Below, one piece after another: positions 16,876 to 38,416 of a stretch of 64,000 nt of DNA. Source of the stretch: Oscillospiraceae bacterium (GTDB lineage Bacteria > Bacillota > Clostridia > Oscillospirales > Acutalibacteraceae); contig JAIRXU010000008.1 in assembly GCA_031268095.1 (NCBI GenBank), forward strand, positions 15,622 to 79,621. The letters run 5' to 3'. A model generated the notes under the pieces. That model ran no database searches, had not been told where the DNA came from, and saw only the letters and a program-made list of their open reading frames with translations. The position numbers and the translations under genes were made by a program. Positions within the stretch are counted from its first letter, which is position 1. Every line of letters starts with the position of its first letter.

Positions 16876-17442
16876 TCAGGGGATTTGGAAGCTGTCGTCC
16901 TGCCGCGCGGCAGCGGCAGACTCCGCGGTCTTGGATTTCTCCGGTCCCGACCTTTCCCCAAAGTAGGGGACGCCCCGCCCCAAACAGCGCAAGACGCCGT
17001 TTGCCATCAGCGGAAGCGTTGCCGCCAGCAGCAGCCAAAACCCGACCCCCGCCGTCACGTTCACAATGTTGCCGCCCGGATACAGCGCCAACAACAACTC
17101 TCCCCGCAGCACTCTCTGCGCGACGAACAGCTGCCAGAAGAGAAACCCAACTTGCAGCGCGGAAATGGCCAGATAGACATACCGCGAGAGCAGCGCAAAA
17201 TCCTTGTTCCGCCAAGTCAGCAGCCAAATCACCGCCGCCAGAGCCGGATACAGGACTACTTGGACAATCACCGCCGCCGGGAGCGCGTAGACCGACCGGC
17301 TGAAAACCGTCATATGGCCGTTGTCTACGGCCTGCGCCCGGGCAAAGGGCAGGAAGGCCAGCAGCAGATAGAGCGCCGCAATCAGCAGAGGAAGATAGGC
17401 CAGGACCTTCCGGAGGCCTGGCGGGGCGGAAAACCGTTGCAA
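16876..17442 (-). CDS. hypothetical integral membrane protein
   Basis: About 5 hydrophobic helices. TTG start with AAAGGTGG 7 nt upstream. It lies 52 nt downstream of the SipW-like gene. Confidence 0.55.
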   Translation of the reverse strand: MQRFSAPPGLRKVLAYLPLLIAALYLLLAFLPFARAQAVDNGHMTVFSRSVYALPAAVIVQVVLYPALAAVIWLLTWRNKDFALLSRYVYLAISALQVGFLFWQLFVAQRVLRGELLLALYPGGNIVNVTAGVGFWLLLAATLPLMANGVLRCLGRGVPYFGERSGPEKSKTAESAAAARQDDSFQIP

Positions 17443-17494
17443 ATCAGTTCCACCTTTCCAAAGTTCCCGGCTCCGCCCGTCCGGCGAAGATCGG

Positions 17495-19210
17495 CTAAAA
17501 ATCTTTGCATCCGCGCAGGAACCGGTCTACCCAATCTTCCTTGCGGAATGCGGAGCAGTTGTTGAGCACTGTCAGCAGTTCATCCATCCAGGCCGGGGCG
17601 GCGTCCTGTCCCGCAGCGGGCAGCATGCTGACAATGATGGTTTCTTCCGCGGGCGCTTTCGCCGCCTGCGCCGCGGCCGCCAGCAGGACCGACGGGACCG
17701 TGGGAACCTCGGCGGCAGCCGGGGACGCCAGTTGGGAGACCGCCAGTTTGCGTTTCAAGCCCGCCGGGTCTGTCAAGTCGGACAGGGATGCGACCCGCCG
17801 GGACGGGGCGGCAGCGGTTGCCGCGGCTGCGGTCCGCTTGGGCGCGCGGGGCGGCGGGGGCGGCACCGGAACGATGACCGGCGTACGCTCGGAAATCACA
17901 TGCGCGGCGGTCGGGATACCGCACGGCTCTTTTGCCGGTGCTTCCAGCGAGGCAGGCTTCAGTTCTTCCGGCAACGGCGCGGCCGGTTCCGCCGAAATTG
18001 GCTGCGGCACTTCCGCCGGCAGCGTCTTTTCGGCCGGCGCGGCCGGCGACGGGCTCATCAGCAATTCTTCCAGAGAACGGTTCATCCTGCGCAGCTTCTC
18101 TTCCGGGCCGCTTTCCCGGGCAGGCGGCGCGAAGTGCGGCGGCGGCAGTGCAGATTCCTCCGCGGAAGATTCTTTCACGGAAAAATCTTCTGCCGTGTCC
18201 GCAACGGACCGGGGCAGGATATCCGATGGCTGAATCGCCGGGCGCGGCGGCAGCTGGGGCTCCGGCAAAGCGGATTTTTCCGGGGACATCAACGGCGCAG
18301 GCGGCTGGACCGACGAGACATGCGGGAAGGCCGGAAACTCTGGCAGCGCCGATTCTTTTGGAAACTCCCGCGCCGGCGGGAGCTGGAACGATTCGACGCG
18401 AACCGGCTCCCCCTGCCCGAACAGGTCCAATGGATTGGGTTGATCAAATGATCCCATGGGATCCTGCGCGCTCCCCAAAGCTGCCGCTTCCGATTCCAAG
18501 GACATCCCCTGCGGTTCCCCAACCGCCAAAACTCCCTCTCTCCCGCTTGCCGGCGCTTCCTCCGGCGCCTGATGTTCTCTCCCCCGCCGCTTTTGATTTT
18601 CTCCATTTTCCCTCTGATTTTTTTTGCGCTGTTTGCCCGCACGGGCCGCATAGACTATGATACAAATGATAATGCTCAGCAGCGCCAGCCCGCCCAGCGG
18701 GGCGGCAACATACAGCAGAAACCCTTGCACGGTATTGATCTTGGTGACAAAATTTAAAATCACAATGGTTTTGTAGCGGTAATTGGATTGGCTGACCGGC
18801 GGAGAATCGGACGTTGGGTTGTGGTCGCCTTTGGTGATCTTATAGACGCCCCGGTCCTCGACGATGCGATGCGTATTCAGTGTCTTGCCGTCTTCCTTGG
18901 TGAAGGTAATCACGTTGCCTTCCTTCAGGTCGGCAAACGGCACGGCGCGGTCAATGACCAGCGCGCCGGGCAGGATGGTCGGCGACATGGACTCGGTCGT
19001 CACCCGGACAGGCCGGAAGCCATACCAAGTTCCCGCCCATCCGCTGATGACATTGGTCAGCGCCAGCGGCAGAATTGCCAGCACCAACAGCAGCGAAAGC
19101 AGAATGATCATCAGGTTGAGCAAGGTATTCTGGGATTTTTCTTTCTTTCCGGCATGCCCGGAATGTTTGCCGGACGCGCCGGCGGGGTTGGGGTTCGACG
19201 CCTGTTTCAT
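17495..19210 (-). CDS. ER/archaeal-type (SipW-like) signal peptidase I with a ~390-aa Pro/Ala/Glu-rich C-terminal extension
   Basis: TM helix, then TTESMSPTILPGALV (catalytic Ser box) and ITKGDHNPTSD (His box), then a second TM helix. ATG 19208-19210 follows AGGAGG, so it is preferred to GTG 19237. Confidence 0.8.
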   Translation of the reverse strand: MKQASNPNPAGASGKHSGHAGKKEKSQNTLLNLMIILLSLLLVLAILPLALTNVISGWAGTWYGFRPVRVTTESMSPTILPGALVIDRAVPFADLKEGNVITFTKEDGKTLNTHRIVEDRGVYKITKGDHNPTSDSPPVSQSNYRYKTIVILNFVTKINTVQGFLLYVAAPLGGLALLSIIICIIVYAARAGKQRKKNQRENGENQKRRGREHQAPEEAPASGREGVLAVGEPQGMSLESEAAALGSAQDPMGSFDQPNPLDLFGQGEPVRVESFQLPPAREFPKESALPEFPAFPHVSSVQPPAPLMSPEKSALPEPQLPPRPAIQPSDILPRSVADTAEDFSVKESSAEESALPPPHFAPPARESGPEEKLRRMNRSLEELLMSPSPAAPAEKTLPAEVPQPISAEPAAPLPEELKPASLEAPAKEPCGIPTAAHVISERTPVIVPVPPPPPRAPKRTAAAATAAAPSRRVASLSDLTDPAGLKRKLAVSQLASPAAAEVPTVPSVLLAAAAQAAKAPAEETIIVSMLPAAGQDAAPAWMDELLTVLNNCSAFRKEDWVDRFLRGCKDF

Positions 19211-19262
19211 TGCGAAGCCTCCTAGTCTCGTTTTCACGTCCTAACGGGTGAGCGGAGAGCGC

Positions 19263-20966
19263 TCAACCCGCTCTGCTTTTTTCCAGTGCCTGCTGCATGT
19301 ATTGGACCAACTTGCTCAAGCCCTTGTCGTTCATGGTCTTGACAAACGCATCCCAATCGCCGTCCAGATTCTTGGCGCCGGTAACGAACTCCCTCGAGGT
19401 TTTGTTGAGGGTATCGATCAGGTCGCTGTAGACGTTCGCATCACTGCCGTTGTTGAGTTCTTCACTCTGCTCGGCGGTAAGGATCAGTTCCGGCAATTCG
19501 TAGCGCAGGCAGGCGCGTCCGATGGGTTCGTAGTACTGACGGGTTACCTGGTTCAGGTAGCCTTGCCAATTCAGCGGGCTAAGCAGATCGGCGCTGCCGT
19601 TTTGGTCCGGGGTGGCCTGCTGCGCCAGCTTCCGGTCAGCGGACATCCAGTAGGGCAGCTCACCCCGGATGGCGCCGTAAATGGCGGTCCCGTCTACCGC
19701 TTTGTCCGCCAGCCGCCAGGTTGCCTGCGCGCCGCCCATGGCTTGAATGCGGTTATCCGCCGGGAACCAGCCAACGCTTTCCGCGCCGTAGAGCACCGTA
19801 AGCGATCCGTGCTCGGAAAGCATCGCGTCCCCGAATCGCAGCGCCAGTTTCTGCCTCTTGTCGCTCAGCCGGGAGGGCACCAGGAAACCGCCCAGCTTCA
19901 CCTGGCTGCGGCGGACCAGCGTACCCTGCTGGCTGCCGTTTTTCAGCGGGGGCAACGGAACGTAAACGGCGGCCCGGGCGGTGTCGTTGAAGAGGGCATA
20001 GAGGTCTTTGGCAAGGATCACGCCGTATTTTTCATTGGCGCGGCTGCCGCCCAGGAAAACCTCCGTCCCCTGCTGGAAAACGTTCTGGTCCAGCAGGCCT
20101 TCGCCGTAGAGGGTGCGCAGGTAAGACAGCGCCTGCCGGAATCCGGGTCCGGTGACCGCGGCGGTCACGCTGCCGTCTTCGGCCAGGCCCAGGAAATTGC
20201 TGTCGGCCAGGTCGTAGTCGGTGTTGACGAAGGCATGGATGAGGTACCCCAAGGTCGTAGCATTGCCTTGCCCGCCGTAAGCTGCGCCCAGCGGGATCTC
20301 GTCGGCCGCGGAACCGTTGCGGTTGCAGTCCTCCGTCTGGAACTTCCGCAGCACGGCCAGCAGCTCATCCGTGGTGGCGGGCATCTGCATTCCCACCCGT
20401 TGCAGCCATTCGGCGTTGATCCAAGCCTTTTGCGGGTATTCCTCGCTGAGGGATTCCTGGAAAGCGGGCAGAGAGTAAATACCGCCGTCCAGCATCAGCT
20501 CCGGCAGACGGGCCGTGTCGCTGCGGATCACTTCGGAAAAATTCGGCATCAGTTTGTCGTCTTGGGCCATGTTGGTGAGGTTGAGGAAGGCGCCCTGCTG
20601 GGTCAGCGCCGTCAGCTGGCTCAGCTCCAGCCCTGTGCCGAGGTAGCAGTCCGGCAGGTCCGCGCCTTCCTTGGGCAGGTCTTCCGCCATTTTGGCGTAG
20701 ACCTTCTCGTTCTCCGCCCCATAATCCAGCCACTTGATCCGCACATGCAACTCATCTTCGAACGCCTTGGTGATCCCGGCCTCGTCCCAGAATTTGATGA
20801 CATCACTGCGGGCGGCAACCTTGATGGTATCCTTGCGGTAGGTTACCAGAAAGAAGACGCCGGTTCCCAGAAGCAGACAGGCCACCAGAATCACCGCGAT
20901 GATCTTCCCGATCGGGCCCTTTTTCTCGTCCTTTTTTGCCTTGTTCGCTTTTTTCTCTTTTGCCAT
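19263..20966 (-). CDS. extracellular solute-binding-protein family 1 homologue (large LplA/YtcQ-like type), TM-anchored, with no cognate ABC genes nearby
   Basis: Lys-rich N-terminus plus a TM helix (IIAVILVACLLLGTGVFFLV). The overall SBP pattern includes the C-terminal ..NLDGDWDAFVKTMNDKGL... ATG 20964-20966 replaces the ORF-track start at 21194. Confidence 0.75.
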   Translation of the reverse strand: MAKEKKANKAKKDEKKGPIGKIIAVILVACLLLGTGVFFLVTYRKDTIKVAARSDVIKFWDEAGITKAFEDELHVRIKWLDYGAENEKVYAKMAEDLPKEGADLPDCYLGTGLELSQLTALTQQGAFLNLTNMAQDDKLMPNFSEVIRSDTARLPELMLDGGIYSLPAFQESLSEEYPQKAWINAEWLQRVGMQMPATTDELLAVLRKFQTEDCNRNGSAADEIPLGAAYGGQGNATTLGYLIHAFVNTDYDLADSNFLGLAEDGSVTAAVTGPGFRQALSYLRTLYGEGLLDQNVFQQGTEVFLGGSRANEKYGVILAKDLYALFNDTARAAVYVPLPPLKNGSQQGTLVRRSQVKLGGFLVPSRLSDKRQKLALRFGDAMLSEHGSLTVLYGAESVGWFPADNRIQAMGGAQATWRLADKAVDGTAIYGAIRGELPYWMSADRKLAQQATPDQNGSADLLSPLNWQGYLNQVTRQYYEPIGRACLRYELPELILTAEQSEELNNGSDANVYSDLIDTLNKTSREFVTGAKNLDGDWDAFVKTMNDKGLSKLVQYMQQALEKSRAG

Positions 20967-21265
20967 AGTTGCAGACTCCGTTTCTATCGAATGTTTGGGA
21001 TCCGTCGCGGAGGGAACGCCGCCATGAAACAGGCGCCCATGATGCCGTTCCCTCTGGGATGGATTTCCTTCATTTGCTATGTCGCGTAACGGGATGAAGC
21101 GCCGTTGTCCGAAGCTGCCCCGGGGACCTGCCCCGGGGTCTTTCCTTCGCCTCTCTCCCTGTTCTTCCCCTGCTCTCTCCCGCTCCGGTACCACACCAGA
21201 GCGGGAGAGATTTCTCCGTGCACCATGCGATGCTTTTGATCAAATGGATCGTGCCGCGGAAAAGG

Positions 21266-24200
21266 TCAGGAACGGGAATGCTTCTTGCGGTACGTCTTGC
21301 GCAAGAACACCACTAGAACAATAATCGCTGCGGAACCCAGCAGGAGGACGATCGCCCAGATGGCCGTCGGCTCATTCATTTTCGGGACGTAACTGTCGCC
21401 GCCGGAGCTGTTGGATCCATTCGAGCCGCTGGAACCATTCGAGCCGTTGGATCCATTCGAACCGCCCGAGCTGTTGGAGCCGCCGACAGTATTGGTGTTG
21501 CTGCTCGAGTTATCGCTCGAATTGTTGGCAGAATTGTCGTTGGTGTTCGTGTTGGAATTGTTGCTGCTGTTGTCAACGTTGATGACCGTATCGCCGCCGG
21601 TGCCGGTGCCGGAACCGCCGGGCAGGTTGATGTTGATATCAATGTTGATATCCCCATTGACGCCGCCAGAACCACCGGAGCCGCCGTTTCCGCCGGAGCC
21701 GCCCGAGTTGCCGCCGCAGTTGCCGCAGGCGCAGGCCCCGCCGCCGTTCCCATTTCCGCTCCCGTTTCCGCAGGTACAGGTGCTGCCGTTTGTGCCGCAG
21801 GAGCAGCCGGGATTCGTCGGGTTACCAGGATTCGTCGGCTGGCAGGTGCAACCGTCGCCCGGATTGCTGGGATCCGTCCCGCCGGGGCCCTTTGTCCCCT
21901 TGTTGAGTACGACCGGGTTCGACGCGCTGCCGCCTGCGTAAGCGACGTTGCGGATGGTGCCCGTTTCGCTGTTGGTTACCTTGGCCTGGAAGGACACTTC
22001 CGTGCTGGCGTAAGGCGCGAGGGACGCGATGATCCAGGTCACGATCCCGTCAGCGTAAGTGCCGTTGGCGGAGGCGCTGTTCGCGACATAGGAGGTCCCT
22101 TCCGGAATGGCGTCGGTCACGGCAACGTTCTTTGCCTGCAAGCCGGAATTGTTGCGGGCGCGCAGGGTGAAGGTGACGACGTCGTCTTTGGACACCACCT
22201 GGTTGACCGCCGTGTTCGTGAACTTCTCCAGGCTGATGGAAGACTTTTGGTTGCTGTGGTAGACCGGGTTGCTCGGGACGCTGCCGCTGCCGCCGGGGCC
22301 GCTCACGGTCGCCTGGTTGCGAATTGGCTGCTGCTCTTCGCCCGCGCCCAGCGCATTGACGGTCACCTTGAAGGAGAGTGTCCGGACTTGCCCGACGGAG
22401 AGCGCGCCCACCGCCCAGGTAATGGTCCGGCCGCTGATGGTGCCGCCGTTGTCGATGGAGCCTTCGACCAGCGTCGTCCCCGCCGGGATTTCATCCGTGA
22501 CGGTTGTGCCGGTCACCGTTGCGGCGCCCAGGTTGGTCACATCAATGGAATAGGTGATCACGTCGCCTTGCGTGACGGCGGTCCCCGCCGCGGGGCTCGC
22601 GTGCTTCATCGCGCCAACACCCTTGAAGCTCGGCTGATAGACGGGATTGTCCACCGCGTTGCCAGGTGTGCCGTTCACAAAGGCCTGATTGTGGATGACC
22701 GTGGTGATGTCTTCTGTCGCCGGAGCATTCACTGTCGCCTGGAAGGAGACGGTCTTGGATGCGCCCGCACCGAGGGAAGCGAGGTTCCAGACCAGGTTCT
22801 GGCTGGTCCGCACACCGCCGTCACTGGCGCTGCCTTCCACAAAGGTGGTTCCCGCGGGGATTGTATCCGTTATGGTGATATTTCTGCGCGCGGCGGAGCC
22901 GAGGTTGGTCACCGTCAGACTGTAGGTGATGGTATCGCCCACTTGCACCTGGGTGTAGTTGGCGCGGCCCGCTGATTTTTGCAGAAGGAGATCCCCTTGG
23001 GCCGGAGACGTCGTCTGGGTGTGGAACACTTGGTTGGTGTTGCGTTCCCCGTTGGGGCCGCCGACGTAAGCGATGGCATCCAGCACACGGAACGGCTGGT
23101 TCGCGCCAAGTTCCTGCACCGTGACGGTGAAGCTCACGTTCTTGGTCGTGCCCTTGAGGAGGCTCGGGATGGTCCAGCGGATTTCGCCCGCGTTGAGGAC
23201 GCCGCCGTCCGTCGCGGAATCCGCGAGGTACACTGTGCCGGACGGGACGGGAATGCGGACAGGGACGTCAGTCAAGTCCGTATTGCCGTTGTTGATGGCC
23301 ATAATGGTGTACGTGATGGTGTCGCCCACCTGGACTCTGCTCTTGGAAACCGGGGCAGTGAAGAGGTAACCGTCCGTATGCGGCTGACTGAAGCTGCCGG
23401 GGTTCACAACGATTTCCTCATTGCCTTCCTTGCCGTTCACCACCGGCGTGTTGCGGATGTACTTCACAGAATTCGCGCCCGCAGGCAACGGGAGGACCAC
23501 CGCGCGGAAACTGACGGACTTACTTTGCTTGCCGCCCAGGGTTGGGATGATCCAGGTGACCGTATTGGTCCCGGCGGCGTAGGTTCCGCCGTCGCTGGCG
23601 GAGCCGTTCACAAAGCCGAGTCCTTCCGGCAAGGTGTCGCCGACGGTGACGTTCGTCGCGGCGAGGGTGCTGTCATTGTAGACCGTCAGGGTATAGGTGA
23701 TCTCCTGGCCAGCCGTTACGGTCGTATTCGAGGGCGGGTTGGAGATCTTGCTGCCGCTGAGGAATTCATCCGCCGGCGGAACCACAATGATAATTTCGTT
23801 GGTGGCCGCTTCCGAGCTGCCGCTGGGATTCGGCGTATAGTAGGCGGTATCCCGAATGATCCCGGGGGTGGTAGAATTGTTGGCGTTGACGGTGACTTCA
23901 AACCAGACCGTCTGGCTTGCGCCGGGGGCGATGGACGCCACCGTCCAGCTGACCTCGTTGTTTGTGCTGTTATACGATCCGCCGGCTGAAATATTGTTGG
24001 CATAGGAGGCCCCGGCCGGGATGGGGTTGCGGACCGGGATGTTGTACGCCGGCGACGATCCGTTGTTGACCAGCACGACGGAATACCGTACCGTAGATCC
24101 GGGCGGGAGCAAGGACCCGTTGATCGGATTCGAGCTCAGCGTCGCGGAGACCAGCGGCATCTGGCCGTTGACGGAATGGAAGATAGGGTTCGAGTAGTAG

Positions 24201-30200: not shown

Positions 30201-33200
30201 ACGATATACGTAATGACGTCATTTTCCACCACTTCCGTGCCGGGAGCCGGATTGGAGGTCTTGAGGGTATTCAGTGCGTTTTTGCCCTTGACGTAATGGT
30301 AGACGGGGTTGGTCGCTAAGTTGTCCACCACCGCGCGATTGACCAGCGTCCGCTCGAGTTCCCCTGTATTGAGCGGATCCGCCGTCACTTTGAACTTCAA
30401 TACCACGCTCCCGCCGGCGGGGATGCTGTTGATGGTCCAGGTGATGACGCCCGAGCCCGCGTTGTAGCTCGCGGCGATGCCCAGCGCCGGATTTTGGGTG
30501 GCCGAGGCGGCGACATAGGCCGTATACTGGGGCACCTGATCGGTGACAATGAGGTTGCTGCGCGGCGAAGTCGCGTGATTGAAGACCTCAATGCTGTACT
30601 CGATCACATCGTCCTGCTCGACCATGGAGCCGGTGACCGGGTCGGCGCTTTTCTCGCCGTAGACGTCCGGGCGGACCACCTTGTGGATCACCTGCTGGGT
30701 GGCGGAACCGCTGACGATGGCGGTATTATAAATATAGTGTTCCGTTTCGCCGGACTTGAGCTGCCCGGCCGTGACCTCAAAGTGCAGGTCGATGCTATCC
30801 CCCGCCGCGAGCAGCGGGATCACCCACTGTACCCAGTTGTAGCTGGGATCATAGAGGCCGGCATTGTCGGCGGAGCCGGTAACATAGGACGTTTCCGCCG
30901 GAATGTAGTCATATACGGGGATATTTTCCACCGCCACAGCGGCGCGGTTGGTGACGGTGATGGTATACTGCACCGTCTTCCCTGCGTAAATGGTGGTATT
31001 GGTGGGCGGCTCAGCGGACTTGGTGCCTTCCACCGGCGGCAGAATGACGTAATGGGAAACTTCATTGGAAGGAATCGTCGGCAGGCCGGGATCGTCGGCG
31101 GTGCCGCCGCCGTTGCCGGTGTAGGCGACGTTGTCGATGCGGCCCTGGCTTTTGCCGAAGGGCAGCTCGTTCACCGTAACGGCGAAGGAGACGGTCTCCG
31201 TCGCTCCCGGGGCAATCGACGGAATGACCCAGTCAATGTTCTTCGTCGCATTGTTATAGAGTCCGCCGGCGGTGATGGATCCGGCCTTCAGCGTCGTCCC
31301 CTGGGGGATGGTATCCCGCACGGGCACGAAAGCGATGGCTTTATCTGTCACGTTCTTGAGGGCGACGGTGTACGTGACGGTCTGGCCGACATAGACTTCG
31401 CTGCCGTCTGCGGGATCGGCGGATTTGGTGGGCACGATCTTGGGCTGCGTAATTTCGTGCTCGACTTCGTTGGACGGCACGTCCGGAATGCCGGGCTTGT
31501 CTTTCGTCCCGCCTTCGCCCGCGATGGCGACGTTAATGGCCTTGCGAGCATACTCGCCTTCCGGCAGGGGATCCGCAGTAACCTTAAATGTCAGGGTATA
31601 GCTGTCTCCCGGCTCAATGAAACGGAGCACCCATTCCACCCGGTTGGTGACGTGGTTCTCTTCCCGAACCAGGCGGCCGCCGTCTGAGGCGGAGCCGGGG
31701 ACATACGTGGTCCCCAGAGGAACGGTATCCCAGACCGGGAGGTATTCCAGCAGGTCTCCGCTGTGGTTGGTGACGGTGATGGTATACTTGATTTGCTGCC
31801 CGGGCGCGACGACGCTGCCATCGGGCGGATCCGCGATCTTGTCCACATCAATGAGGTACGGCACAACGGTGTGCTCTGCTTCGTTGGTATTTTCACCGGG
31901 GGTGTCGTAGCCGTAGATCACCGCGTGGTTCTTGATGACCCTGGACAGCTGGCCGTAAGCCAGGGGATTGACCCGAACCTTGAACGTGACGTACACTTCG
32001 CCGCCGATGGGTGCCGTGGTGCCGCCCGCCGCGCCGGTGGGTTCCAGCCGCGGGATGGTCCAAATCACCCGGCCGGTGGAGGCCTCGTACTTGCCGGTGC
32101 CATCGCCGGTGCCGGTCAGGGATCCTGGCACATACGTCGTTCCGGCGGGGATCGCGTCAATGATTTGGACGTTGGTATCCGCCAGGGTACCCACATTGCG
32201 GACCGTGATGGTGTAGGTGATGATGTCGCCGGGGCGGACGCGGGTGATATTCCCGGCCGTGCTCTCTTTGGGCGCGGCGCTCTTGCTGTACTCCAGCACC
32301 GGCTTCTTGACATGGTGCCGGACGACGTTGGTCTCCGAGCCGTCCACCGTCGCGAGGTTGGTGATGGTGGCGCTGCCTGTCCCGGCGGGGAGCCGGTCAA
32401 CGATGACCTCAAACGTCAGCTCTCGGATCTCGCCGACAGACCAGGTTGCGAAATTCCAGGTGATGGTCCCGCCGCTTTCTGTGCCCCCGTGGGAGATGCT
32501 GCCGGGCACGAGGGTTGTGCCGACAGGGACCTGATCGGTGACAACCAGATTCCGGGACTTCATGTCGCCAACGTTCTGCACCTGAATTTTATAGGTGATA
32601 CGCTGGCCTTCGATGACGTCGGACTCCGTCGGCGGGACCGCCGTTTTTTCATACAGAGGCAGGTCTTTGCCGACTGTGTGGGTGACAGTGTTGGTGACGA
32701 TCTCATCAACATAGGCAAAGTTGTTGATCGTCCCGACCAAGTCGCCTTCCGGCAGCGCGTTCGTCGTCACCTGGAAGGTGATGGTCTCCGTCCCGTTGGG
32801 GGGGATGCTGGCGATGGTCCAAGTCAGCTCCCCGCCGGCGTTCAGCGTTCCGCTGCTGGCGACGTTGGCGGAAGTGGATGCGGAACCGGCGACGTACGTC
32901 GTTCCCAGCGGGATCTTGTCCCGCACAAGCACCTTTGTGGCCTCTTCGGAGCCCTTGTTCATCACCTCGATGGTGTAGGTGACGGTCTCGCCTTCGTGCA
33001 GCCGGGAACTGGTGGTTTTATCGGCGGACTTCACGCCGTAGACAAAGTAATTCGTCTGGTTATGGATGACATGGTTGGTCTCGAAGTCGGCCACTTTGGC
33101 GACGTTGTCAATGATCCGCTTGTCCAGGTTTTCGGGCATCCGCTCCACTTTGACTTGGAAGCTCAGCACAGCCTTCTTCCCCGCCGCCAGCGCTTTGATA

Positions 33201-36058
33201 TTCCAGTTGAGGCTGTTATCCGCGCTGTTGAAGCTCTTGGCGGAAGCTGTATCTTCTGTGCCGTCGATCTTGACGGAAATGGAGTTCGGAACATAAACGG
33301 TCCCTGCCGGAATCGAATCCTGCGCCGGAATATTGTACGTCGTGTCCGCGCCGGGATTGAAGACGTCAATGTAATACGTAATCACCGTGTCTTCATGGAC
33401 GATGGAATTTTCCACCGGGTCGGCGTATTTCACGGCGGTTTTGGATCCCGCGTACTGGTAATGCTCCGTCTCGTTGGTATTGATGCCGTTGACGTAGGCT
33501 ACATTGCGGAATTCCCGCTGGCTGATGCCCTGGGGCATCACTTTGACCTTGGCCTGGAAGCGCACGACCGTGCTTTCCAGCGGTTTGAGTTCGCTGATCA
33601 CCCAGTAGAAGTTATAGCCGTCCGTGTCCGCCTGGGGCGTTCCCGCAGGATAGTACGTCCCGGTGATGGTACCGCCCATCATGGTGGCCGTCCCGTTGGT
33701 GAGCGAGCCCGGAACATAGTCCAGATTGTCCGGCAGCTGGTCGGTGACAATGGTATTATAAGCTGGTTCCGAGCCGGTGTTGGTCACCTCCACCAGGTAG
33801 GTGATGATATCGTTTTCATATACTGTTGTTCCCGTGATGGGGATGGATTTCTTCACGCCAATGATGTTGGCTGAACCGACATAGTGGGTGGTCTGGTTCG
33901 TCGGAGAATCGTCCACCGTGGCGACGTTCTCCAGCGTCCGGAACTTCACGCCGTCGGGCAGTTCATCCACATGGACGGTGAAACTGAAGCTCTTCTCCTC
34001 GTTCCCCTGGAGCACAGGCACAAGCCATGTCAGTTTCTTGTGTCCTGTCGGGAGGGTCGTGATGCTGTTGGGCGTCGGGGTGGGTGCCGGGGTGCCGAGC
34101 AGCGTCGTGCCGTCCGGCGTCTGGTCCGTCACGGTAATATCCCGGATCACATCCGGCCCGCTGTTATAAATGGTGACGGTATATGTAATGTTGCTGCCGA
34201 CTTTGACGATGCTCCCCGAGGGCGGCACGGAAGTCTTCACCGCGTTGAGCACACCGGAATAGACGAAGTGCCAGGTGGGGTTGCCGGGAATGTTGTTGAG
34301 GTAGGGCTGGTTCTGGATCATTGCGAACTGTACGCCTTTGTCCAGCGCGTCCACCGTGACCTTGAACTCAAAGACCGCTTTCTTTCCGGCTTTAATGAAA
34401 ACATTGTCCCAGACGATTTCGCCGTTGACGATCTGGGCAGCGGAGGCGGTGAAGTCTCCTGGCGCGCCCGCGCTCGTCACCAGCCGGCCGGATCCTGCGA
34501 CATAGGAGGTCCCGGGCGGGATTGTGTCGCGGACGACGTTGCCGCCGCTGTCCTGCGGGCCGCTGTTATAGACGGTGAGGGTATAGGTGATGGTCCCCCC
34601 CTGCGGGACCTTTGATCCCGTCGGCGGGTCGGCGGTCTTCACCAGCTGGAGGTCCGAGGCGCACTGCTCGTATGTCCATTCGTTGGTGTGCTCCCCGTCC
34701 TCGCCGAAGGCGACGTTGATGATGAAGCGCGGGCACTCGTTCAGGCCCATCTCATCCGCTGTGACGCGGAACTTCAGCTCCCGCGTTTCCTTGATCTCAA
34801 TGTTCTTCAGCACCCAGGTAATGGTTCTTGTCGTGGCGTTGTAGGTCCCTCCGGCGGTGATGGAGCCGGGCACCAGCGTCACGTGAGCGGGTAGCGGATC
34901 GGTCACAGTATAGCTTTCCACCGCGTAGTCGCCCCGGTTGGAAACTTCAATGGTATATTCAATCTCCGTCCCGGCCTTCAGCAGGGACCCTTGTGGAAGG
35001 GAGCCTTTTTTATTCATGCCGATGTCGGGTTCGAGAAAGATCTTCCCTTCCGCTTTGTAGTAACGATCCCGGCCTTCAACCCCGGAAAAGAGGATCTGGT
35101 CGGCCGCTTCTTCGCCCACGCCGCCGCCGACGCCGTCATAAATCCAAAGCAGCAGCGGGCCCAGATCTTCGGTCCTGGCGTAAGGGATATCGGTTCGCTT
35201 GAGCGTGATGGTAAACAGATGGTCCGCCGGGTTGGTGCCGCTGGGGGCGTAAAAGGTATACATACTGCCCGAAATGTCGACTTGGATGCCGTTGGGATTG
35301 GCGCCGACGACGGCGAGCTTGGGCCGCCGGGTGCCGGGGTAAACGGTCATGTCCTGGAACGTTTGCTCGTAGCGGGAGGTGCTGCTGTTCCATTTCAGAT
35401 CCAGGTGCAGCGTTGTGCTGGTCGAAAGGAAGCTCGGATCCAGCAGGTAAACGTGCACTTCCTCGACGATCTGATTATAGATCTTGACGACTTCTGGGTA
35501 GTTGAGCTGATTGTAGATGTCGTTGTTGGTTCGGTTGTAGTTCGCGTCGCGGTAGCCCAGCTCGCTTTCCCAAATCAGCATTTGGGTCGCGCAGTGGGCC
35601 GCTTGCCGGTTGGCCGCCGTGTCGGTCAGGCCGAAATCTGACACGGGGCGGTTCGGGTAACCGAAGAGCGCCGTGCGCGCCATGTTTTCCTTGATCGTCG
35701 CGCTCAGGGCTCGGGCCGCCGCGCCGCCGCCGAAGAGCAACTCCGCCTGGTGCATGCCCGAGGACACCGCGCGGCCTTTTTGGGCGCAAAAGCCCTCCCA
35801 GCCGCCGCCCGCCGTCGGGTAGGTCAGGCCGCTGCCCCCCGCGATGCTGGTGATGACATCGCCGGTGTAGGGATCCCGAATCGTAATTTGCACCTTGTTG
35901 GTATACTGCGTCAGGTGGCCGATGCTGATGTTGAGCCAGCTGCCGTCCGTCGGTTCCGCCAGCGACTGGGTAACCAGCATGGAAAACTGACCCAGGATCA
36001 TTATCAGGACCAGCAGTGCGGCGACCGCCGCACTTTTTGCCTTGATTTTCGGTTTCAT
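21266..36058 (-). CDS. giant (4,930 aa) cell-surface adhesin: signal peptide, putative thioester domain, ~34 DUF11-type repeats, CxC cluster, N/S/G stalk, sortase-type C-terminal anchor
   Basis: Single uninterrupted ORF with RBS AAGAGGG 6 nt before ATG 36056-36058. Signal peptide ..VTQSLA/EP. The repeat motif D-x-[IVL]-P-x-G-T-x-[YF]-V-x-G-S was counted 34 times by eye. The C-terminus is YVPKMNEPT, a 21-aa hydrophobic helix, then RKTYRKKHSRS. Confidence 0.9.
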   Translation of the reverse strand: MKPKIKAKSAAVAALLVLIMILGQFSMLVTQSLAEPTDGSWLNISIGHLTQYTNKVQITIRDPYTGDVITSIAGGSGLTYPTAGGGWEGFCAQKGRAVSSGMHQAELLFGGGAAARALSATIKENMARTALFGYPNRPVSDFGLTDTAANRQAAHCATQMLIWESELGYRDANYNRTNNDIYNQLNYPEVVKIYNQIVEEVHVYLLDPSFLSTSTTLHLDLKWNSSTSRYEQTFQDMTVYPGTRRPKLAVVGANPNGIQVDISGSMYTFYAPSGTNPADHLFTITLKRTDIPYARTEDLGPLLLWIYDGVGGGVGEEAADQILFSGVEGRDRYYKAEGKIFLEPDIGMNKKGSLPQGSLLKAGTEIEYTIEVSNRGDYAVESYTVTDPLPAHVTLVPGSITAGGTYNATTRTITWVLKNIEIKETRELKFRVTADEMGLNECPRFIINVAFGEDGEHTNEWTYEQCASDLQLVKTADPPTGSKVPQGGTITYTLTVYNSGPQDSGGNVVRDTIPPGTSYVAGSGRLVTSAGAPGDFTASAAQIVNGEIVWDNVFIKAGKKAVFEFKVTVDALDKGVQFAMIQNQPYLNNIPGNPTWHFVYSGVLNAVKTSVPPSGSIVKVGSNITYTVTIYNSGPDVIRDITVTDQTPDGTTLLGTPAPTPTPNSITTLPTGHKKLTWLVPVLQGNEEKSFSFTVHVDELPDGVKFRTLENVATVDDSPTNQTTHYVGSANIIGVKKSIPITGTTVYENDIITYLVEVTNTGSEPAYNTIVTDQLPDNLDYVPGSLTNGTATMMGGTITGTYYPAGTPQADTDGYNFYWVISELKPLESTVVRFQAKVKVMPQGISQREFRNVAYVNGINTNETEHYQYAGSKTAVKYADPVENSIVHEDTVITYYIDVFNPGADTTYNIPAQDSIPAGTVYVPNSISVKIDGTEDTASAKSFNSADNSLNWNIKALAAGKKAVLSFQVKVERMPENLDKRIIDNVAKVADFETNHVIHNQTNYFVYGVKSADKTTSSRLHEGETVTYTIEVMNKGSEEATKVLVRDKIPLGTTYVAGSASTSANVASSGTLNAGGELTWTIASIPPNGTETITFQVTTNALPEGDLVGTINNFAYVDEIVTNTVTHTVGKDLPLYEKTAVPPTESDVIEGQRITYKIQVQNVGDMKSRNLVVTDQVPVGTTLVPGSISHGGTESGGTITWNFATWSVGEIRELTFEVIVDRLPAGTGSATITNLATVDGSETNVVRHHVKKPVLEYSKSAAPKESTAGNITRVRPGDIITYTITVRNVGTLADTNVQIIDAIPAGTTYVPGSLTGTGDGTGKYEASTGRVIWTIPRLEPTGAAGGTTAPIGGEVYVTFKVRVNPLAYGQLSRVIKNHAVIYGYDTPGENTNEAEHTVVPYLIDVDKIADPPDGSVVAPGQQIKYTITVTNHSGDLLEYLPVWDTVPLGTTYVPGSASDGGRLVREENHVTNRVEWVLRFIEPGDSYTLTFKVTADPLPEGEYARKAINVAIAGEGGTKDKPGIPDVPSNEVEHEITQPKIVPTKSADPADGSEVYVGQTVTYTVALKNVTDKAIAFVPVRDTIPQGTTLKAGSITAGGLYNNATKNIDWVIPSIAPGATETVSFAVTVNELPFGKSQGRIDNVAYTGNGGGTADDPGLPTIPSNEVSHYVILPPVEGTKSAEPPTNTTIYAGKTVQYTITVTNRAAVAVENIPVYDYIPAETSYVTGSADNAGLYDPSYNWVQWVIPLLAAGDSIDLHFEVTAGQLKSGETEHYIYNTAIVSGSATQQVIHKVVRPDVYGEKSADPVTGSMVEQDDVIEYSIEVFNHATSPRSNLIVTDQVPQYTAYVAASATQNPALGIAASYNAGSGVITWTINSIPAGGSVVLKFKVTADPLNTGELERTLVNRAVVDNLATNPVYHYVKGKNALNTLKTSNPAPGTEVVENDVITYIVTVTNDDVLPATGTVITDAIPAGTQYYAASPAPAGSTGGYIAAANEMRWTIATLAPGATMAFTFRVKVLAMPQNLIQRTILNRAFINNRGTNQVMHFQKNAPISAYKSADPPSLSRVLVGAEILYTIRVENPGAAAVTNVVVLDYIPAGTTYVAGSANAGGAYDPGDNLVRWTIASVAPGATETVTFKVKVSRLPDGRTSAKILNVALVNGAPTNQTVHDVASPHIVATKSAEPPHLSEVLEGQVIRYTITVKNTGDVADYNIKVKDLVPQYTTLIKDSVTNGGVTVAEEITWIINTLEAGAEKHLSFDVYPNQLPEGLARRKIENTALYGQGGEDPETPTNTVIHNVNKARVIPFKSAVPASGSTVRVGSYIEYTVGLRNEGTLMALNTLVYDEIPAGTTFVPGSIRGNGYYNAALNRVEWSVTNIQAGSTAFVGFTVRANPLPAGETELEVVNVAIVDDKPTNEVTHTVVPPVLGAVKSADPPHMSEVAPEDIITYYITFTNNGTGTIYNIPVIDTVPVGTTFVPESATPNGVYYPPNRRITWQIPSLASGASITLSFQVTVDDLPALMESREIINTAYYNEGGGTPINPGIPDLPTNDVIHIAYPMAFSAEKTASPESGQAVKPGDTVDFTITVRNYGPKPMLNVPVTDVLSTYFDFISADSGGTFNPITRQIAWNIPTIPALHGTASVTFRVRANNLTPGESMRTIYNIAYAKGKPTNTTVHYVMPDDPEPDHPYVQVAKDATPTTGSNVLPGDTITYRLTVSNIGLGTAQSLVVEDLIPVGTTYVPGSADHGGSYSTADKKVIWSLGSMAGGATPIVLSFQVTVDSLGELTYRQVVNKGTVSYLDGATPVTRDSNPVNHEVNPIPDDFIVTKTANPEEYSTVAPGTEITYTVTVTNLSPAPMTNVTIYDPIPAYTTYVANSADNGGVLVGGQVVWTIPTIAANGTAQVTFRAKMDQLQSGIFQRTVHNSAYATSAGKRKYAPEVIHYVIAGDTGGPRIGKKAVPVTGSTVEAGTEIAYSITVTNGSTNDLLNMNVRDSIPANTTYVSGSANPAATFADNALTWTIAKIEPGKTVEVTFKVKTLALGYNYQVTNTAQLLVPGGTWLSDQVTHYVTGETPPVNASKSAIPSSGSPVETGDVITYAINIQNPGTSPVTNIRVNDIIPAGTSYIPGSASDGGTLQGGTLVWNISGLAAGTIRQLTFQATVTGTDNVIRNHATVSVNNATAVETNETAHYMATTENLTVTKRAIPAAGSVVHAGDEITYYLDIKNNGTSAATNVRVFDYLPKGVTYVQNTAIPNGVLNDVQMEWIIASIAAGRTTSVTFRVKVDDLPDGVNFLQLRNQGHILESDGPHYSNVVLHNVIRDTNTLQMIKTASPVTGSTVQKGATIRYTITVTNNSSMEATNILVEDPLPANTAYVADSASDNGTLNAGKVQWTIASLSPGQSKALTFSVTVNGGDWVGLLENTATATYSGQTIRSNPTHHYPGTTNQVPVQVLKRSAPPSGSNVSQGETITYYVDVFNYSDSPLANVQVFDDIPAGTEYQNGTATNGGSLENSSGRLHWVLTNIPARESVTVSFQVTVGTLPQGSSARRLSNQAYALTSDGPAVSNRVSHEQQAQGAVTPISVSKTALPASGSPVLPNQLVTYTITVSNPNSQRAEDIDVYDPIPAGTVYEPNSADNGGILLGGSIYWHVNRLNANQSVTFHFSVRVLSSAQSTIQNVAQATYGGRTVNSNATEHYPGTANYAFSKGSTPIDGSTVQPGDVIIYHLYLTNTGTSNLTNVLLEDIVPGGTKYQEGSGQYTVGGGDGGAIGNYAHVTTLEGGQVQLTWLIPSVAPGDTVHAFFEAVASVLPAGTSGVLLRNVGESVVNGISRESNEVIINVGTPPPHPIQLTKTASPPAGSQVTPNSEIAYTLTVRNPGTAPVNNILVSDPVPAGTSYVSGSGGILSGGNVTFQIAQLAGNETRTLTFKVKVDSAAATGAVILNTAQATAESFLYYSNPIFHSVNGQMPLVSATLSSNPINGSLLPPGSTVRYSVVLVNNGSSPAYNIPVRNPIPAGASYANNISAGGSYNSTNNEVSWTVASIAPGASQTVWFEVTVNANNSTTPGIIRDTAYYTPNPSGSSEAATNEIIIVVPPADEFLSGSKISNPPSNTTVTAGQEITYTLTVYNDSTLAATNVTVGDTLPEGLGFVNGSASDGGTYAAGTNTVTWIIPTLGGKQSKSVSFRAVVLPLPAGANSVKYIRNTPVVNGKEGNEEIVVNPGSFSQPHTDGYLFTAPVSKSRVQVGDTITYTIMAINNGNTDLTDVPVRIPVPSGTVYLADSATDGGVLNAGEIRWTIPSLLKGTTKNVSFTVTVQELGANQPFRVLDAIAYVGGPNGERNTNQVFHTQTTSPAQGDLLLQKSAGRANYTQVQVGDTITYSLTVTNLGSAARRNITITDTIPAGTTFVEGSASDGGVRTSQNLVWNLASLGAGASKTVSFQATVNAPATEDITTVIHNQAFVNGTPGNAVDNPVYQPSFKGVGAMKHASPAAGTAVTQGDVITYSIDVTNLGAATVTGTTVTDEIPAGTTLVEGSIDNGGTISGRTITWAVGALSVGQVRTLSFKVTVNALGAGEEQQPIRNQATVSGPGGSGSVPSNPVYHSNQKSSISLEKFTNTAVNQVVSKDDVVTFTLRARNNSGLQAKNVAVTDAIPEGTSYVANSASANGTYADGIVTWIIASLAPYASTEVSFQAKVTNSETGTIRNVAYAGGSASNPVVLNKGTKGPGGTDPSNPGDGCTCQPTNPGNPTNPGCSCGTNGSTCTCGNGSGNGNGGGACACGNCGGNSGGSGGNGGSGGSGGVNGDINIDININLPGGSGTGTGGDTVINVDNSSNNSNTNTNDNSANNSSDNSSSNTNTVGGSNSSGGSNGSNGSNGSSGSNGSNSSGGDSYVPKMNEPTAIWAIVLLLGSAAIIVLVVFLRKTYRKKHSRS
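21395..21715 (-). repeat. low-complexity coding tract (Gly/Ser/Asn stalk) with short imperfect DNA tandem repeats
   Basis: Protein reads GGNSGGSGGNGGSGGSGG..NSSNNSNTNTNDNSANNSSDNSSSN..GSNGSNGSNGSSGSNGSNSSGG. The DNA shows reiterated GGATCCATTCGAGCC-like units. Confidence 0.8.
21896..35026 (-). repeat. array of ~34 diverged ~105-125-aa DUF11/'conserved repeat domain' modules (coding)
   Basis: Each unit reads roughly ..G(D/E)x(I/V)TYT(I/L)xVxNxG..A.N(V/I).V.D.(I/L)PAGT.YV.GS...GG.......(I/V).W.I..L..G....(L/V).F.V.V. The units are diverged at the nucleotide level; I saw no long identical DNA repeats. Confidence 0.8.
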
Positions 36059-36080
36059 AACTAACCCTCTTCCTTTCTTT

Positions 36081-36096
36081 GATCTTTTTCAAGATC
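36081..36096 (-). promoter_or_regulatory. hairpin/palindrome in the 5' leader of the giant gene
   Basis: GATCTT-TTTC-AAGATC, about 20 nt upstream of the RBS. Confidence 0.25.
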
Positions 36097-36197
36097 TCCA
36101 CGCTCTCCCATTTTGCTTGACTCTTCCTTTGCTTCCCCTCATGGACATCAGTACGTTGGACTTCCTTTGTTTTTTTCTCGGGTCATCTATCGTCATC

Positions 36198-36215
36198 AAA
36201 TTCCCTTGGGAATTT
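36198..36215 (-). promoter_or_regulatory. 18-bp perfect palindrome between the sortase stop and the giant gene
   Basis: AAATTCCC-TT-GGGAATTT, 16 nt downstream of the sortase stop. It is not followed by a T-run, so an operator is more likely than a terminator. Confidence 0.25.
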
Positions 36216-36230
36216 TACATTGCTAAACGG

Positions 36231-37916
36231 TTACCGCATGGCCGCCGGATACAGCGGCGAAGGATTGCGGGCGGCGGTGCTGACGTCGATCTCCTCGCCT
36301 TCCCGGATCTGCCGCGCCATGACCACCAGCCGCGCTTCCCGGAAGTCGTAGGCGCAGGTGGTGAGGCTGAGCACCCGATCTCCCGGCCGGAGATCCACCG
36401 GCGTGAAGAAAAGCGAGCGCTGGCGGACTTCCGCCGCGAAACTGTCGATGTTGGCTCCCGCCGTCTGGCGTTCCAGCCGCCATTCGAAAAAGTGTCCGTT
36501 GTCCTGGGCAGGATCTGAGTTGGTGATAAATACCGCAAAAATCACCCAGTTGTGCTCTTCATAAATCGTGTCAAACGAAAACGTTGGATTCTTGAGGTAA
36601 AAGGATAGATCGCGGTACTTTGCCAGCCGGCCGAACATCGCCCCGTTGCGGCAATTATGGCCGTAAATCGCCAGATTGCTGCCTGTTTGCAGCGGCAGGA
36701 CAATGTTGCTGCTGTCCAGGAACAGGGCTCCGTACCGGCTGTATTTCTTGTCCTCGTTGTGGTCGAGGTAAAAATCGTTGTCTCCGCCCTTCATCACCGG
36801 CAAGTCCACTCCGACGGCGGGGATGGAAAGCCAGCCGGTCAAGTCGCTGTTGCGGCTATAGAGCGCGGAAAACTTCGACAGCTGTCCGCCGTTGCCGTCC
36901 GGCGTCTGCGGCGCCGCCGCGGGCTTGCTCTGCCCCTCCGCCGCGCCCGAAGGCTCGCTCTGATGATACAGTCCCGCGAGTTCCTTCGCCTTTGCCCGCT
37001 GCCGGGGCGCTTCCGTGGCGTAGTTGATCAGAAATCCCGCCGCAAAGAGAAACGCCGCGCCTGCCAGCGCCAAAACAGCCGCCGTCGCCGCCTGAAATGC
37101 TTTCCGCCGCTTCACGCGTTCCACGGGCGGCAGCGGCGCCCAGCCAGCTGCGTCCCGCTTCCGTTTTCGTTTTTTGGCGCGCGGGGGAGACGGTTCACTC
37201 GGCCGAACTACCGAAACGCCGAAAGCGAAGGGATTGACGGGCGGCGGCTTGTCCGGAACCGGCGCGGCCGACTGCTGGGCCCGGCCTTTGTCCGCTAAGC
37301 TCGCCGACGCCTCCAGACTTCCCAGGTACTCCAGCACCCGGCGCGCCCGCGCAGGCACGGCGGACACAACGTAGAGTGTCTTCGGACCGCCAGGGGTCCG
37401 GACCGTCATTTCCGCCGCCAGCGGGGTTCCCTGGTCTTCCATCCAGCGAAACGACACTGCGTTGACCGGCGTTCCCGCCGCCGCCGCCGCGGTCTTGCTC
37501 AGCGCCGCCGGCTCCGGAATATCTTCGCCCCAAAAGCCGCCCACCGTCACAACATAGGGAACCGCCGGTTCCCGCGTCAGAACCTCCCGCAGGGCGGGGA
37601 GCAATTCCTCCGGCGCGGCCAGCCGCCGCACCGCGCAGGGGCGGCACAGAAGCTCTTCGCACACTGGGGCGGCGGAGGTCCCCAAGAGGAAAACCGGTAC
37701 CGGCAGGCCCTGCCATTCCGCTTGCGCATTCCACAGATCCAACCGTTCACCCTCTTCCGTTTTCCTCGTTTTTTCCTGCTCTATTTTCTCGTTTGCGCCC
37801 GCCGCCGCCCTATGCTTCTTACCAGATGCGCTGGTCACGCCGCGCTGCCTGCGCAGTTCCTTCCGGCAGCGACCTTCCCAATTTCTCCCGCGCAGCGTGC
37901 TGGCGCGTTGCTGCAT
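36231..37916 (-). CDS. srtB: class B sortase with a ~270-aa cytoplasmic N-terminal extension
   Basis: C-terminal ~230 aa carry LTGWLSIPAVGVDLPVMKGGDNDFYLDHN, IYGHNCRNGAMFGRL (His), LSLTTCAY (Cys) and ARLVVMAR (Arg). A TM helix (AATAAVLALAGAAFLFAAGFLI) is preceded by a KKRKRKR patch and an unassigned domain. Confidence 0.8.
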   Translation of the reverse strand: MQQRASTLRGRNWEGRCRKELRRQRGVTSASGKKHRAAAGANEKIEQEKTRKTEEGERLDLWNAQAEWQGLPVPVFLLGTSAAPVCEELLCRPCAVRRLAAPEELLPALREVLTREPAVPYVVTVGGFWGEDIPEPAALSKTAAAAAGTPVNAVSFRWMEDQGTPLAAEMTVRTPGGPKTLYVVSAVPARARRVLEYLGSLEASASLADKGRAQQSAAPVPDKPPPVNPFAFGVSVVRPSEPSPPRAKKRKRKRDAAGWAPLPPVERVKRRKAFQAATAAVLALAGAAFLFAAGFLINYATEAPRQRAKAKELAGLYHQSEPSGAAEGQSKPAAAPQTPDGNGGQLSKFSALYSRNSDLTGWLSIPAVGVDLPVMKGGDNDFYLDHNEDKKYSRYGALFLDSSNIVLPLQTGSNLAIYGHNCRNGAMFGRLAKYRDLSFYLKNPTFSFDTIYEEHNWVIFAVFITNSDPAQDNGHFFEWRLERQTAGANIDSFAAEVRQRSLFFTPVDLRPGDRVLSLTTCAYDFREARLVVMARQIREGEEIDVSTAARNPSPLYPAAMR

Positions 37917-37957
37917 TGCCCTGATATTACCTCTGTTTACCCTTAATGAGTGGAGAC

Positions 37958-37986
37958 ATTATAGTCATTTATTTTACGGATGTCAA
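37958..37986 (-). promoter_or_regulatory. perfect-consensus sigma-70 promoter upstream of the sortase/adhesin genes
   Basis: Minus strand reads TTGACA (37981-37986), a 17-nt spacer, then TATAAT (37958-37963). It is about 40 nt upstream of ATG 37916. Confidence 0.6.
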
Positions 37987-38183
37987 CTCATCTTCGTAAC
38001 AAAAATGATTTTTTCTCCGACATTTTTTGCTGAAAATCGCATTGTGACAGGAAAAGGGAACATTCTCTGTCGGCTTTTCTCTAAATTTGCAATCATCTGT
38101 TTCTTTTCCCCGTTTTGTCAATTGCCGCTTTAAAATCCGTATGATAAACCGCTGAATTGCATGCTTTATTCTGCTCTTTGCTA

Positions 38184-38208: not shown

Positions 38209-38220
38209 AGGCGCTGTTTT

Positions 38221-38367: not shown

Positions 38368-38416
38368 ACGCCATCTCCCTTTTTTATCGATTGAAAATCG
38401 TTTGAAAGTTTTCATG

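Follow-up and report, generated by a model that had tools for sequence, protein, structure and literature searches.

A conserved five-gene module around a giant fibrillar adhesin, a class B sortase and a SipW-type peptidase in uncultured Oscillospiraceae

Five co-directional genes behind one promoter

We analysed a 64,000-nucleotide (nt) stretch of DNA, here called the window, from an Oscillospiraceae metagenome-assembled genome (MAG; contig JAIRXU010000008.1). Its minus strand carries, in this order, a promoter and the genes for a class B sortase, a giant fibrillar adhesin (the giant), a solute-binding protein (SBP) homologue, a SipW-type signal peptidase and a protein with about four transmembrane segments (the 4-TM protein). 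The five proteins are MDR1463845-49, all encoded on one 85,498-bp contig, and the G+C content of the window is ~60%. By comparison with related loci, the locus is a conserved module that appears restricted to a small uncultured lineage. Positions below are those of the window, and every feature of the module lies on the minus strand.

The promoter is a perfect sigma-70-type TTGACA-17-TATAAT at 37986..37958, placed 42 nt 5′ of the first ATG of the sortase open reading frame (ORF). An exact-pattern search finds it once in the whole 64 kb, and 0 of 100 shuffled sequences gave any match. A terminator-like hairpin of the upstream spoVA-type operon stands just before it at 38212..38193. The intergenic gaps are 172 nt between the sortase and giant genes, 299 nt between the giant and SBP genes and 52 nt between the SBP and SipW genes. 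Terminator-like sites of the minus strand were not detected between the five genes, and Rfam gave no match within 16000..38500.

A preliminary description of this DNA had proposed the promoter, the sortase-B gene followed after 172 nt by an uninterrupted 14,793-nt ORF, and a SipW-type peptidase starting 52 nt past the SBP stop. All of these are found where it placed them, the promoter as the sole exact match and the peptidase with a score above the cut-off of its family model. It also called the 299-nt gap structured, and this is borne out by folding (z = -3.87 against shuffles). It had put the downstream genes outside the interval. This holds for an 88-aa (amino acid) ORF and a propeller lipoprotein but not for the 4-TM gene at 16876..17442, which belongs to the module. 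The module is of five genes, not the four of that description.

The gene order is conserved in related loci

Related loci were collected from look-ups of the SBP-subfamily members and from a scan of GTDB genomes. The genome scan gave no loci with the lone SBP sequence and seven with the SBP family alignment. The giant, SBP and SipW genes occur in that order and in the same orientation at nine other distinct loci, with 0–1 gene inserted (L006/7/17, L008/15, L009/10, L011/12/16, L013, L014, L018, L019 and L020). The 4-TM gene is next in six of the seven loci with enough sequence, and the neighbours beyond it are different at each locus.

The upstream end of the module is seen at other loci. A sortase with the same N-terminal extension is directly followed by a giant with a stalk of CLIPPER domains at L001/2, L003 and L102, and the upstream neighbours differ among them. 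At L004/5, a closely related sortase precedes an ORF like the N-terminus of the L102 giant, cut after 111 aa. Control loci were obtained by a metagenome scan with the sortase alignment, and nearly all of these are generic class B sortases. Profiles built for this analysis detected no SipW-type peptidase, no copy of this SBP and no CLIPPER giant in any of the 79 other metagenomic class B sortase loci. The preliminary description had suggested looking for a co-conserved neighbourhood, and one is present, at nine giant-SBP-SipW loci against 0 of 79 controls.

The GTDB matches are labelled as Oscillospiraceae or Bacillota MAGs, and three of them bear the sample codes Emb289, Lab288 and Co191. Codes of this type belong to MAG surveys of higher-termite guts (PMC7024585).

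Some loci have genes of their own. At L009, a 358-aa coiled-coil protein (11648-12724) is encoded between the SBP and SipW genes, and a PedC-like thiol-disulfide isomerase gene (14136-14630) replaces the 4-TM gene. At L013 the inserted gene (10673-11380) encodes 235 aa. Upstream of the extended sortase of L102 and on the opposite strand, there are a second small divergent sortase and a MerR-type regulator (5425-6072 and 4501-5400, both on the minus strand).

The giant adhesin and its sorting signal

The giant (MDR1463848.1, 21266..36058) has 4,930 aa in its uninterrupted ORF. Pfam, NCBIfam and the sequence layout give the order of its parts as a signal peptide, a thioester domain (TED) head, a CLIPPER/DUF11 stalk, a Gly/Ser/Asn/Cys-rich wall-spanning region and a cell-wall sorting signal. 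The signal peptide comprises residues 1-34 (35957..36058), with a cleavage site predicted from sequence at SLA|EP. In its n- and h-regions it is similar to the signal peptides of the L001 and L003 giants (KIKxKSA...LLLIL...GQ...), and it looks like an ordinary Sec signal peptide of the type I signal peptidase kind.

The TED spans residues 90-201 (35456..35791) and scores 32–34 bits in Pfam against a cut-off of 22. A putative Cys91 in GFCAQ and a putative Gln159 in TQMLIW fit the motifs [YFL]C-psi-[DENQ] and Q-x-phi-phi-W. Among the giants, Pfam detects a TED in that of the window alone. Those of L001 and L003 show a YCIE motif without matching the TED model, and those of L102 and L004 carry a different head. 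The protein was previously called a thioester mega-adhesin. This stands for the window's giant, as its TED is above the cut-off, but conservation of the module does not extend to the TED head.

The stalk extends over residues ~345-4720 (21899..35026) as ~35 CLIPPER/DUF11 (CnaA-like) units of ~125 aa. The repeats match DUF11 at 6.6e-53 and also TIGR01451 and TIGR04226. A regular-expression count finds the isopeptide Lys...Asp...Asn pattern in at least 23 of the ~35 units. CLIPPER is an isopeptide-domain family with a published definition (PMC12617251).

The sorting signal (21266..21388) consists of VPKMN (21374..21388), a following E, the hydrophobic segment AIWAIVLLLGSAAIIVLVVFL and the basic tail RKTYRKKHSRS. 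The giant is the sole protein of the window with such a signal. When the C-termini of ten giants are aligned, each has the motif and E, then 4–5 residues, W-A-[IV], a transmembrane segment and a basic tail. In the nine orthologous giants the motif is [VIA]P[KNQ]T[NGS]E, that is VPNTN, VPKTN, VPQTG, VPKTS, APKTG, VPKTG, IPKTN, IPKTS and IPKTN before the E. The C-terminus of the L006 giant passes the LPXTG-anchor model TIGR01167.

Judged from these residues, the motif family [VIA]PxT[NGS] is of class B type. It parallels NPQTN of Staphylococcus aureus SrtB and VPPTG/EVPTG of Streptococcus pyogenes Spy0129 (PMC3019223). The stretch YVPKMNEPT had been proposed as the sorting motif. Its VPKMN core aligns with VPxT[NGS] of the orthologues, but the whole stretch is not the motif.

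The extended class B sortase

The sortase (MDR1463849.1, 36231..37916) has 561 aa as annotated. The ORF matches Pfam Sortase at 1.3e-12, and all 15 of its sequence matches in the PDB are class B enzymes, the best being Clostridium perfringens SrtB (5b23, 1.4e-30). These matches span C. perfringens, Bacillus anthracis, Listeria, Clostridioides difficile, S. aureus and Spy0129. The catalytic residues His420 (IYGHN), Cys521 (LTTCAY) and Arg529 are invariant in eight homologues. The transmembrane anchor is at residues 276-300.

The N-terminal extension includes a cytoplasmic alpha/beta domain of ~150 residues (66-215; 37272..37721), modelled by AlphaFold2 with a predicted local distance difference test score (pLDDT) of 88. 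It has no Pfam or NCBIfam match. A profile search of 1.84 billion representative proteins returned ~10 clusters of it, where every full-length member is a sortase. The model weakly resembles the MoCF-type subdomains of gephyrin-E, MoeA and CinA (best E = 2e-3, TM-score 0.57). This similarity is too weak for membership of the MoCF/gephyrin-E family, which we rejected.

The first 58 annotated residues are basic and unconserved, and they are missing from the orthologues. Because of this, the true start may be TTG 37742, which is preceded by the Shine-Dalgarno sequence GGAAGAGGG.

The SipW-type peptidase

The signal peptidase (MDR1463846.1, 17495..19210) has 571 aa and belongs to the SipW type (S26B), scoring 67.9 bits in TIGR02228 with a cut-off of 51.85. 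Its score in the Bacillus SipW equivalog model NF046067 is 52.6, compared with a cut-off of 190. It is laid out as a first transmembrane segment at residues 30-51, the catalytic domain, a second transmembrane segment at residues 163-189 and a 366-aa Ala/Pro/Glu-rich cytoplasmic tail. The orthologues were gathered via synteny. A homologue search with the full-length protein matched the query only, which we ascribe to the low-complexity tail.

Ser74 (SMSP), His114 (NTHRI) and Asp129/135 (GDxxxxxD) are invariant in eight orthologues, and there is no Ser-Lys dyad. Because of this invariance, the protein is likely an active peptidase whose proteolytic activity is apparently under selection. The cytoplasmic tails of the orthologues vary from ~90 to 370 residues and close with a D-W-x-[DE]-x-[LF]-like motif. 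The window's tail is at 17495-18590, with the terminal DWVDRFL at 17516-17536.

The orphan SBP, the 4-TM protein and the hairpin between them and the giant

The SBP homologue (MDR1463847.1, 19263..20966) is a membrane-tethered orphan of 567 aa with a FusA/AlgQ-type fold. Its sequence matches FusA (5g5y) at 9.6e-27, and its AlphaFold2 model matches FusA and AlgQ at 3.8e-23 in Foldseek (pLDDT 73.5, with residues 385-452 poorly modelled). As modelled, it has the two-lobed fold of the large oligosaccharide-binding SBPs. It has no Pfam or NCBIfam match. The subfamily is sharply bounded, with 13 clusters at 38–54% identity and the next at 26% or below, and contains many invariant Trp/Tyr residues. 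The tether is an N-terminal transmembrane segment, instead of which the L009 protein has a lipobox.

No permease or ATPase of an ATP-binding cassette (ABC) transporter is found among the ~30 large ORFs scanned in the window, as the preliminary description had said of this membrane-anchored homologue. None is in the gene lists of seven related loci either, and L018-L020 were viewed as ORF lists or profile matches.

The 4-TM protein (MDR1463845.1, 16876..17442), encoded by the fifth gene of the module, has 188 aa and ~4 transmembrane segments, and no Pfam or NCBIfam match. In the alignment, its first hydrophobic segment ends in a conserved LP-x-A-x-A.

Folding of the 299-nt gap reveals a 17-bp perfect GC-rich hairpin without a U-tract at 21174..21210, ~55 nt past the giant stop. 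All eight loci examined have a hairpin between the giant and SBP genes (the window, L006, L008, L009, L011, L013, L014 and L018). Their stems are of 11–19 bp with folding free energies (dG) of -29 to -38 kcal/mol, and mostly there is no U-tract. The position is conserved and the sequence is not. An element that stabilises or attenuates the transcript and sets how much of the structural product is made relative to the accessory ones would fit this.

Other genes of the window

Two candidates for module membership were rejected for having no counterpart in the related loci. One is the 88-aa ORF at 16460..16726. The other is the lipoprotein gene with SBBP/propeller repeats at 14259..16322 (minus strand), which shows a weak match to NF047494 and is preceded by a separate promoter-like site at 16388-16360.

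Further on, an AbiH-like abortive-infection protein is encoded at 11033-11797 (minus strand; Pfam AbiH, 2.4e-21), where the local G+C content is 52% as against ~60%. It may be an inserted defence gene. Next to it, two minus-strand genes at 12111-12542 and 11850-12062 encode small Cys/His-rich, zinc-ribbon-like proteins of repeated H-x-W-D-G-C-x-C-x-x-C-G units. On the other side of the module, a 236-aa protein with a C-type lectin domain, uncommon in bacteria, is encoded at 42430-43140 (minus strand; Pfam Lectin_C, 4e-11). At 62001-64000, the G+C content abruptly falls to 36.5% from the ~60% elsewhere in the window, and this edge may be foreign DNA or a mobile element.

Discussion

The module appears to be a dedicated, lineage-specific operon for surface display, in which the giant would be exported by Sec and anchored by the class B sortase with SipW, the SBP and the 4-TM protein as accessories. 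We give this reading a probability of about 0.6. The locus has one strong promoter, five co-directional genes, a conserved layout and a single protein with a sorting signal.

In the proposed mechanism, Sec would export the giant via its N-terminal signal peptide, and the C-terminal transmembrane segment and basic tail would retain it in the membrane. The adjacent sortase would then cut [VIA]PxT|[NGS] and join the giant to peptidoglycan. The outcome would be an isopeptide-stabilised CLIPPER stalk of ~35 domains that presents a variable adhesive head, a TED in the window. The SipW-type peptidase would be a catalytically competent accessory, most likely removing the signal peptide of the giant. 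It may also act together with the sortase, as SipA/LepA do with the class B pilus sortases.

Obligate accessories would be the SBP and the 4-TM protein, which are likely to bind glycans or to handle the nascent chain where membrane and wall meet. The hairpin past the giant gene probably sets the structural and accessory genes at different levels of expression. As the preliminary description proposed, SipW cleavage at the N-terminus of the giant combined with SrtB anchoring at its C-terminus is plausible.

Several observations weigh against the display operon. On the N-terminal side, the N-termini of the giants have no NCBIfam match at all and hence none to the SipW-cognate signal model. A SipW-cognate signal peptide of TasA type on the giants was rejected on this ground. 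The cluster also encodes no client of TasA, BsaA or camelysin type, the usual partner of SipW. Maturation of the giant's signal peptide by SipW is plausible, and the one thing that points to it is synteny, because the signal peptides of the giants are ordinary and without a SipW-cognate match.

At the C-terminal side, the window's giant has Met (ATG, 21377..21379) at the scissile Thr, which is Thr in all nine orthologues. Anchoring of this VPKMN allele is therefore uncertain. The sortase scores 127.6 bits in TIGR03064, under the equivalog cut-off of 153.75, and its sequence therefore indicates a divergent class B subfamily rather than a canonical Isd-type SrtB.

All five genes are on one contig in the window only, because elsewhere the giant gene usually breaks the assemblies. 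The metagenome sortase scan missed the sortase end of the 221-kb L018 contig, and a second complete module could thus not be demonstrated on any single contig. The NCBI accession numbers of the sortase P0004 and the SBP P0014 differ by 1,075, which suggests that both are from one other MAG with its giant split across two contig ends.

The role of SipW can be read differently. It might mainly assist the class B sortase as its partner or scaffold in the manner of SipA/LepA, presenting the sorting signal or coupling the two enzymes via their cytoplasmic extensions, and leave the signal peptide of the giant unprocessed. The FCT-2/3/4, PI-2 and PI-2b pili indeed need a signal-peptidase homologue along with a class B sortase (PMC7900414, PMC3019223). 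In the module, both enzymes have unusual cytoplasmic extensions, of which the sortase N-domain is confined to this sortase family. The conserved end of the SipW tail and the ordinary signal peptide of the giant would fit as well. Yet SipA/LepA have lost the catalytic residues, whereas here Ser/His/Asp are invariant in the eight orthologues, which argues for selected proteolysis, and we consider a purely scaffolding SipW rather unlikely.

The SBP, SipW and 4-TM genes might also be a unit separate from the adhesin, adjacent to it from shared regulation such as glycan sensing. SipW would then serve the signal-anchor of the SBP or the 4-TM protein. A strong hairpin does divide the giant from the accessory genes at each locus examined, the SBP retains its oligosaccharide-binding fold and invariant aromatic residues, and the 4-TM protein has an A-x-A-like motif past its first transmembrane segment. 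This separation is quite improbable, however, as all ten loci place the unit directly after a co-oriented CLIPPER giant and never by anything else, despite the differing downstream neighbours. Moreover, cleavage by SipW is not a general fate of the SBP, since that of L009 is a lipoprotein with a lipobox.

As to the giant itself, the Met in VPKMN might inactivate the motif and leave only the tether of the transmembrane helix, or it might be an assembly or consensus error of the MAG. The Thr of the nine orthologues speaks for either, as does the fact that ACG to ATG is a single transition. The protein cluster of the giant has one member, so there is no independent copy to compare. Against this, the rest of the sorting signal and the catalytic residues of the sortase are intact, and the substrate motif of Listeria SrtB, NPKSS, has Ser where the scissile Thr corresponds. 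We give little credence to an unanchored or miscalled giant.

Polymerisation is another way to use a class B sortase. The giant would then be a pilin-like subunit joined head-to-tail, as FctA is by Spy0129. Class B sortases with VPxTG-like motifs polymerise the S. pyogenes pili (PMC3019223), and TIGR04226, a model of the isopeptide-forming fimbrial domain, matches the giant's repeats. However, the window has a single protein with a sorting signal and no separate major or basal pilin. The ~35 domains with a single head are the architecture of a complete fibrillar adhesin (PMC12617251). A pilin-like giant is hardly credible.

Within the display operon, the two enzymes could be linked physically. 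The tail of SipW might dock by its D-W-x-[DE]-x-[LF] end on the MoCF-like domain of the sortase so that removal of the signal peptide is coupled with sorting, while on the outer face the SBP would act as a chaperone of the emerging fibre or guide it to wall glycans. We regard this as a speculative and unlikely extension. If true, such a coupled SipW-sortase machine with the SBP, dedicated to a substrate of half a megadalton, would add a new accessory pathway to the ways in which Gram-positive bacteria display giant adhesins. The two unusual cytoplasmic extensions offer a testable interaction.

Export, folding and anchoring of adhesins of several thousand residues are poorly understood in Gram-positive cells. 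The module provides a natural and strictly co-conserved set of parts for a 'pilus' made of one chain, namely a sortase of its own, a SipW-type peptidase that is apparently active, an SBP without a transporter and a 4-TM protein. It thereby extends the sortase/signal-peptidase partnership from S26A pseudo-enzymes to S26B enzymes. In addition, [VIA]PxT[NGS]E is a defined motif for the new class B sortase subfamily and may serve as an orthogonal ligation tool. Because the termite-gut Oscillospiraceae that host the module are uncultured, its biological role can only be inferred. It is probably one of attachment, whether to wood particles, to protists or to the gut wall.

Comparison with known systems

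The preliminary description knew of no system that pairs a sortase and a SipW peptidase around a thioester adhesin. This is too strong, as the FCT/PI-2 pili and the C. perfringens srtB-sipW locus precede the module. The FCT-2/3/4 pili of group A Streptococcus, the pneumococcal PI-2 pilus and the PI-2b pilus of group B Streptococcus need a sortase of class B together with SipA/LepA, and the tip adhesin Cpa carries thioesters (PMC7900414, PMC3019223). SipA/LepA is an essential but catalytically dead signal-peptidase homologue, and its requirement is unexplained (PMC7900414, PMC3019223).

These streptococcal loci share with the module, within one operon, a sortase of class B fold (SrtC1/Spy0129), a type I signal-peptidase homologue and a thioester surface protein stabilised by isopeptides (Cpa). 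Their motifs VPPTG and EVPTG and those of the module giants, VPKTG, VPQTG and VPKTN, are all Val/Pro-rich xPxTG variants. The streptococcal pili, however, are polymerised from separate pilins, whereas one 4,930-aa protein would be the whole fibre of the module. SipA/LepA are S26A proteins without the catalytic residues, and the module peptidase is an S26B protein with invariant Ser/His/Asp and a long cytoplasmic tail. The orphan SBP, the 4-TM protein and the cytoplasmic sortase domain, all present in the module, are missing from the streptococcal loci.

In C. perfringens, srtB adjoins sipW-bsaA-bsaB-bsaC, and genes for signal peptidases and sortases are frequent in the BsaA/TasA loci of Clostridia (PMC11580942). 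Both systems have a SipW-type peptidase beside a class B sortase and surface or matrix proteins with isopeptide bonds, and among solved structures the nearest to the window's sortase domain is C. perfringens SrtB (5b23). In that species SipW serves the TasA-like BsaA/BsaB, whose assembly is by donor-strand exchange, and srtB, whose role is unproven, has a divergent orientation (PMC11580942). The module differs in that it has no TasA-like gene, all its genes are co-directional and its cargo is a CLIPPER giant.

The fibrillar adhesins with a TED (SfbI, Cpa, the 'TIE' type and those with a CLIPPER/DUF11 stalk) share with the window's giant the order of signal peptide, N-terminal TED, isopeptide stalk and sorting signal. 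They are usually LPXTG-anchored, while the module giant has a class B sortase of its own besides three more dedicated genes. The enzyme that anchors TED adhesins is normally an unlinked housekeeping class A sortase. Also unlike them, the orthologous giants of the module have heads without a detectable TED.

The module SBP shares its fold, its size and many conserved aromatic residues with the cluster-D oligosaccharide SBPs FusA, AlgQ1/2 and Blon_2347. Unlike these importer SBPs of FusA/AlgQ type, it is anchored by a transmembrane segment, or by a lipobox in one locus, and is syntenic with a giant and SipW.

In summary, the module is a real, conserved variant of the known sortase display loci and not a new type of system. 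New in it are the single-chain giant cargo, an S26B enzyme whose catalytic residues are intact, the orphan SBP and the 4-TM protein as obligate members, and the cytoplasmic extensions on both enzymes.

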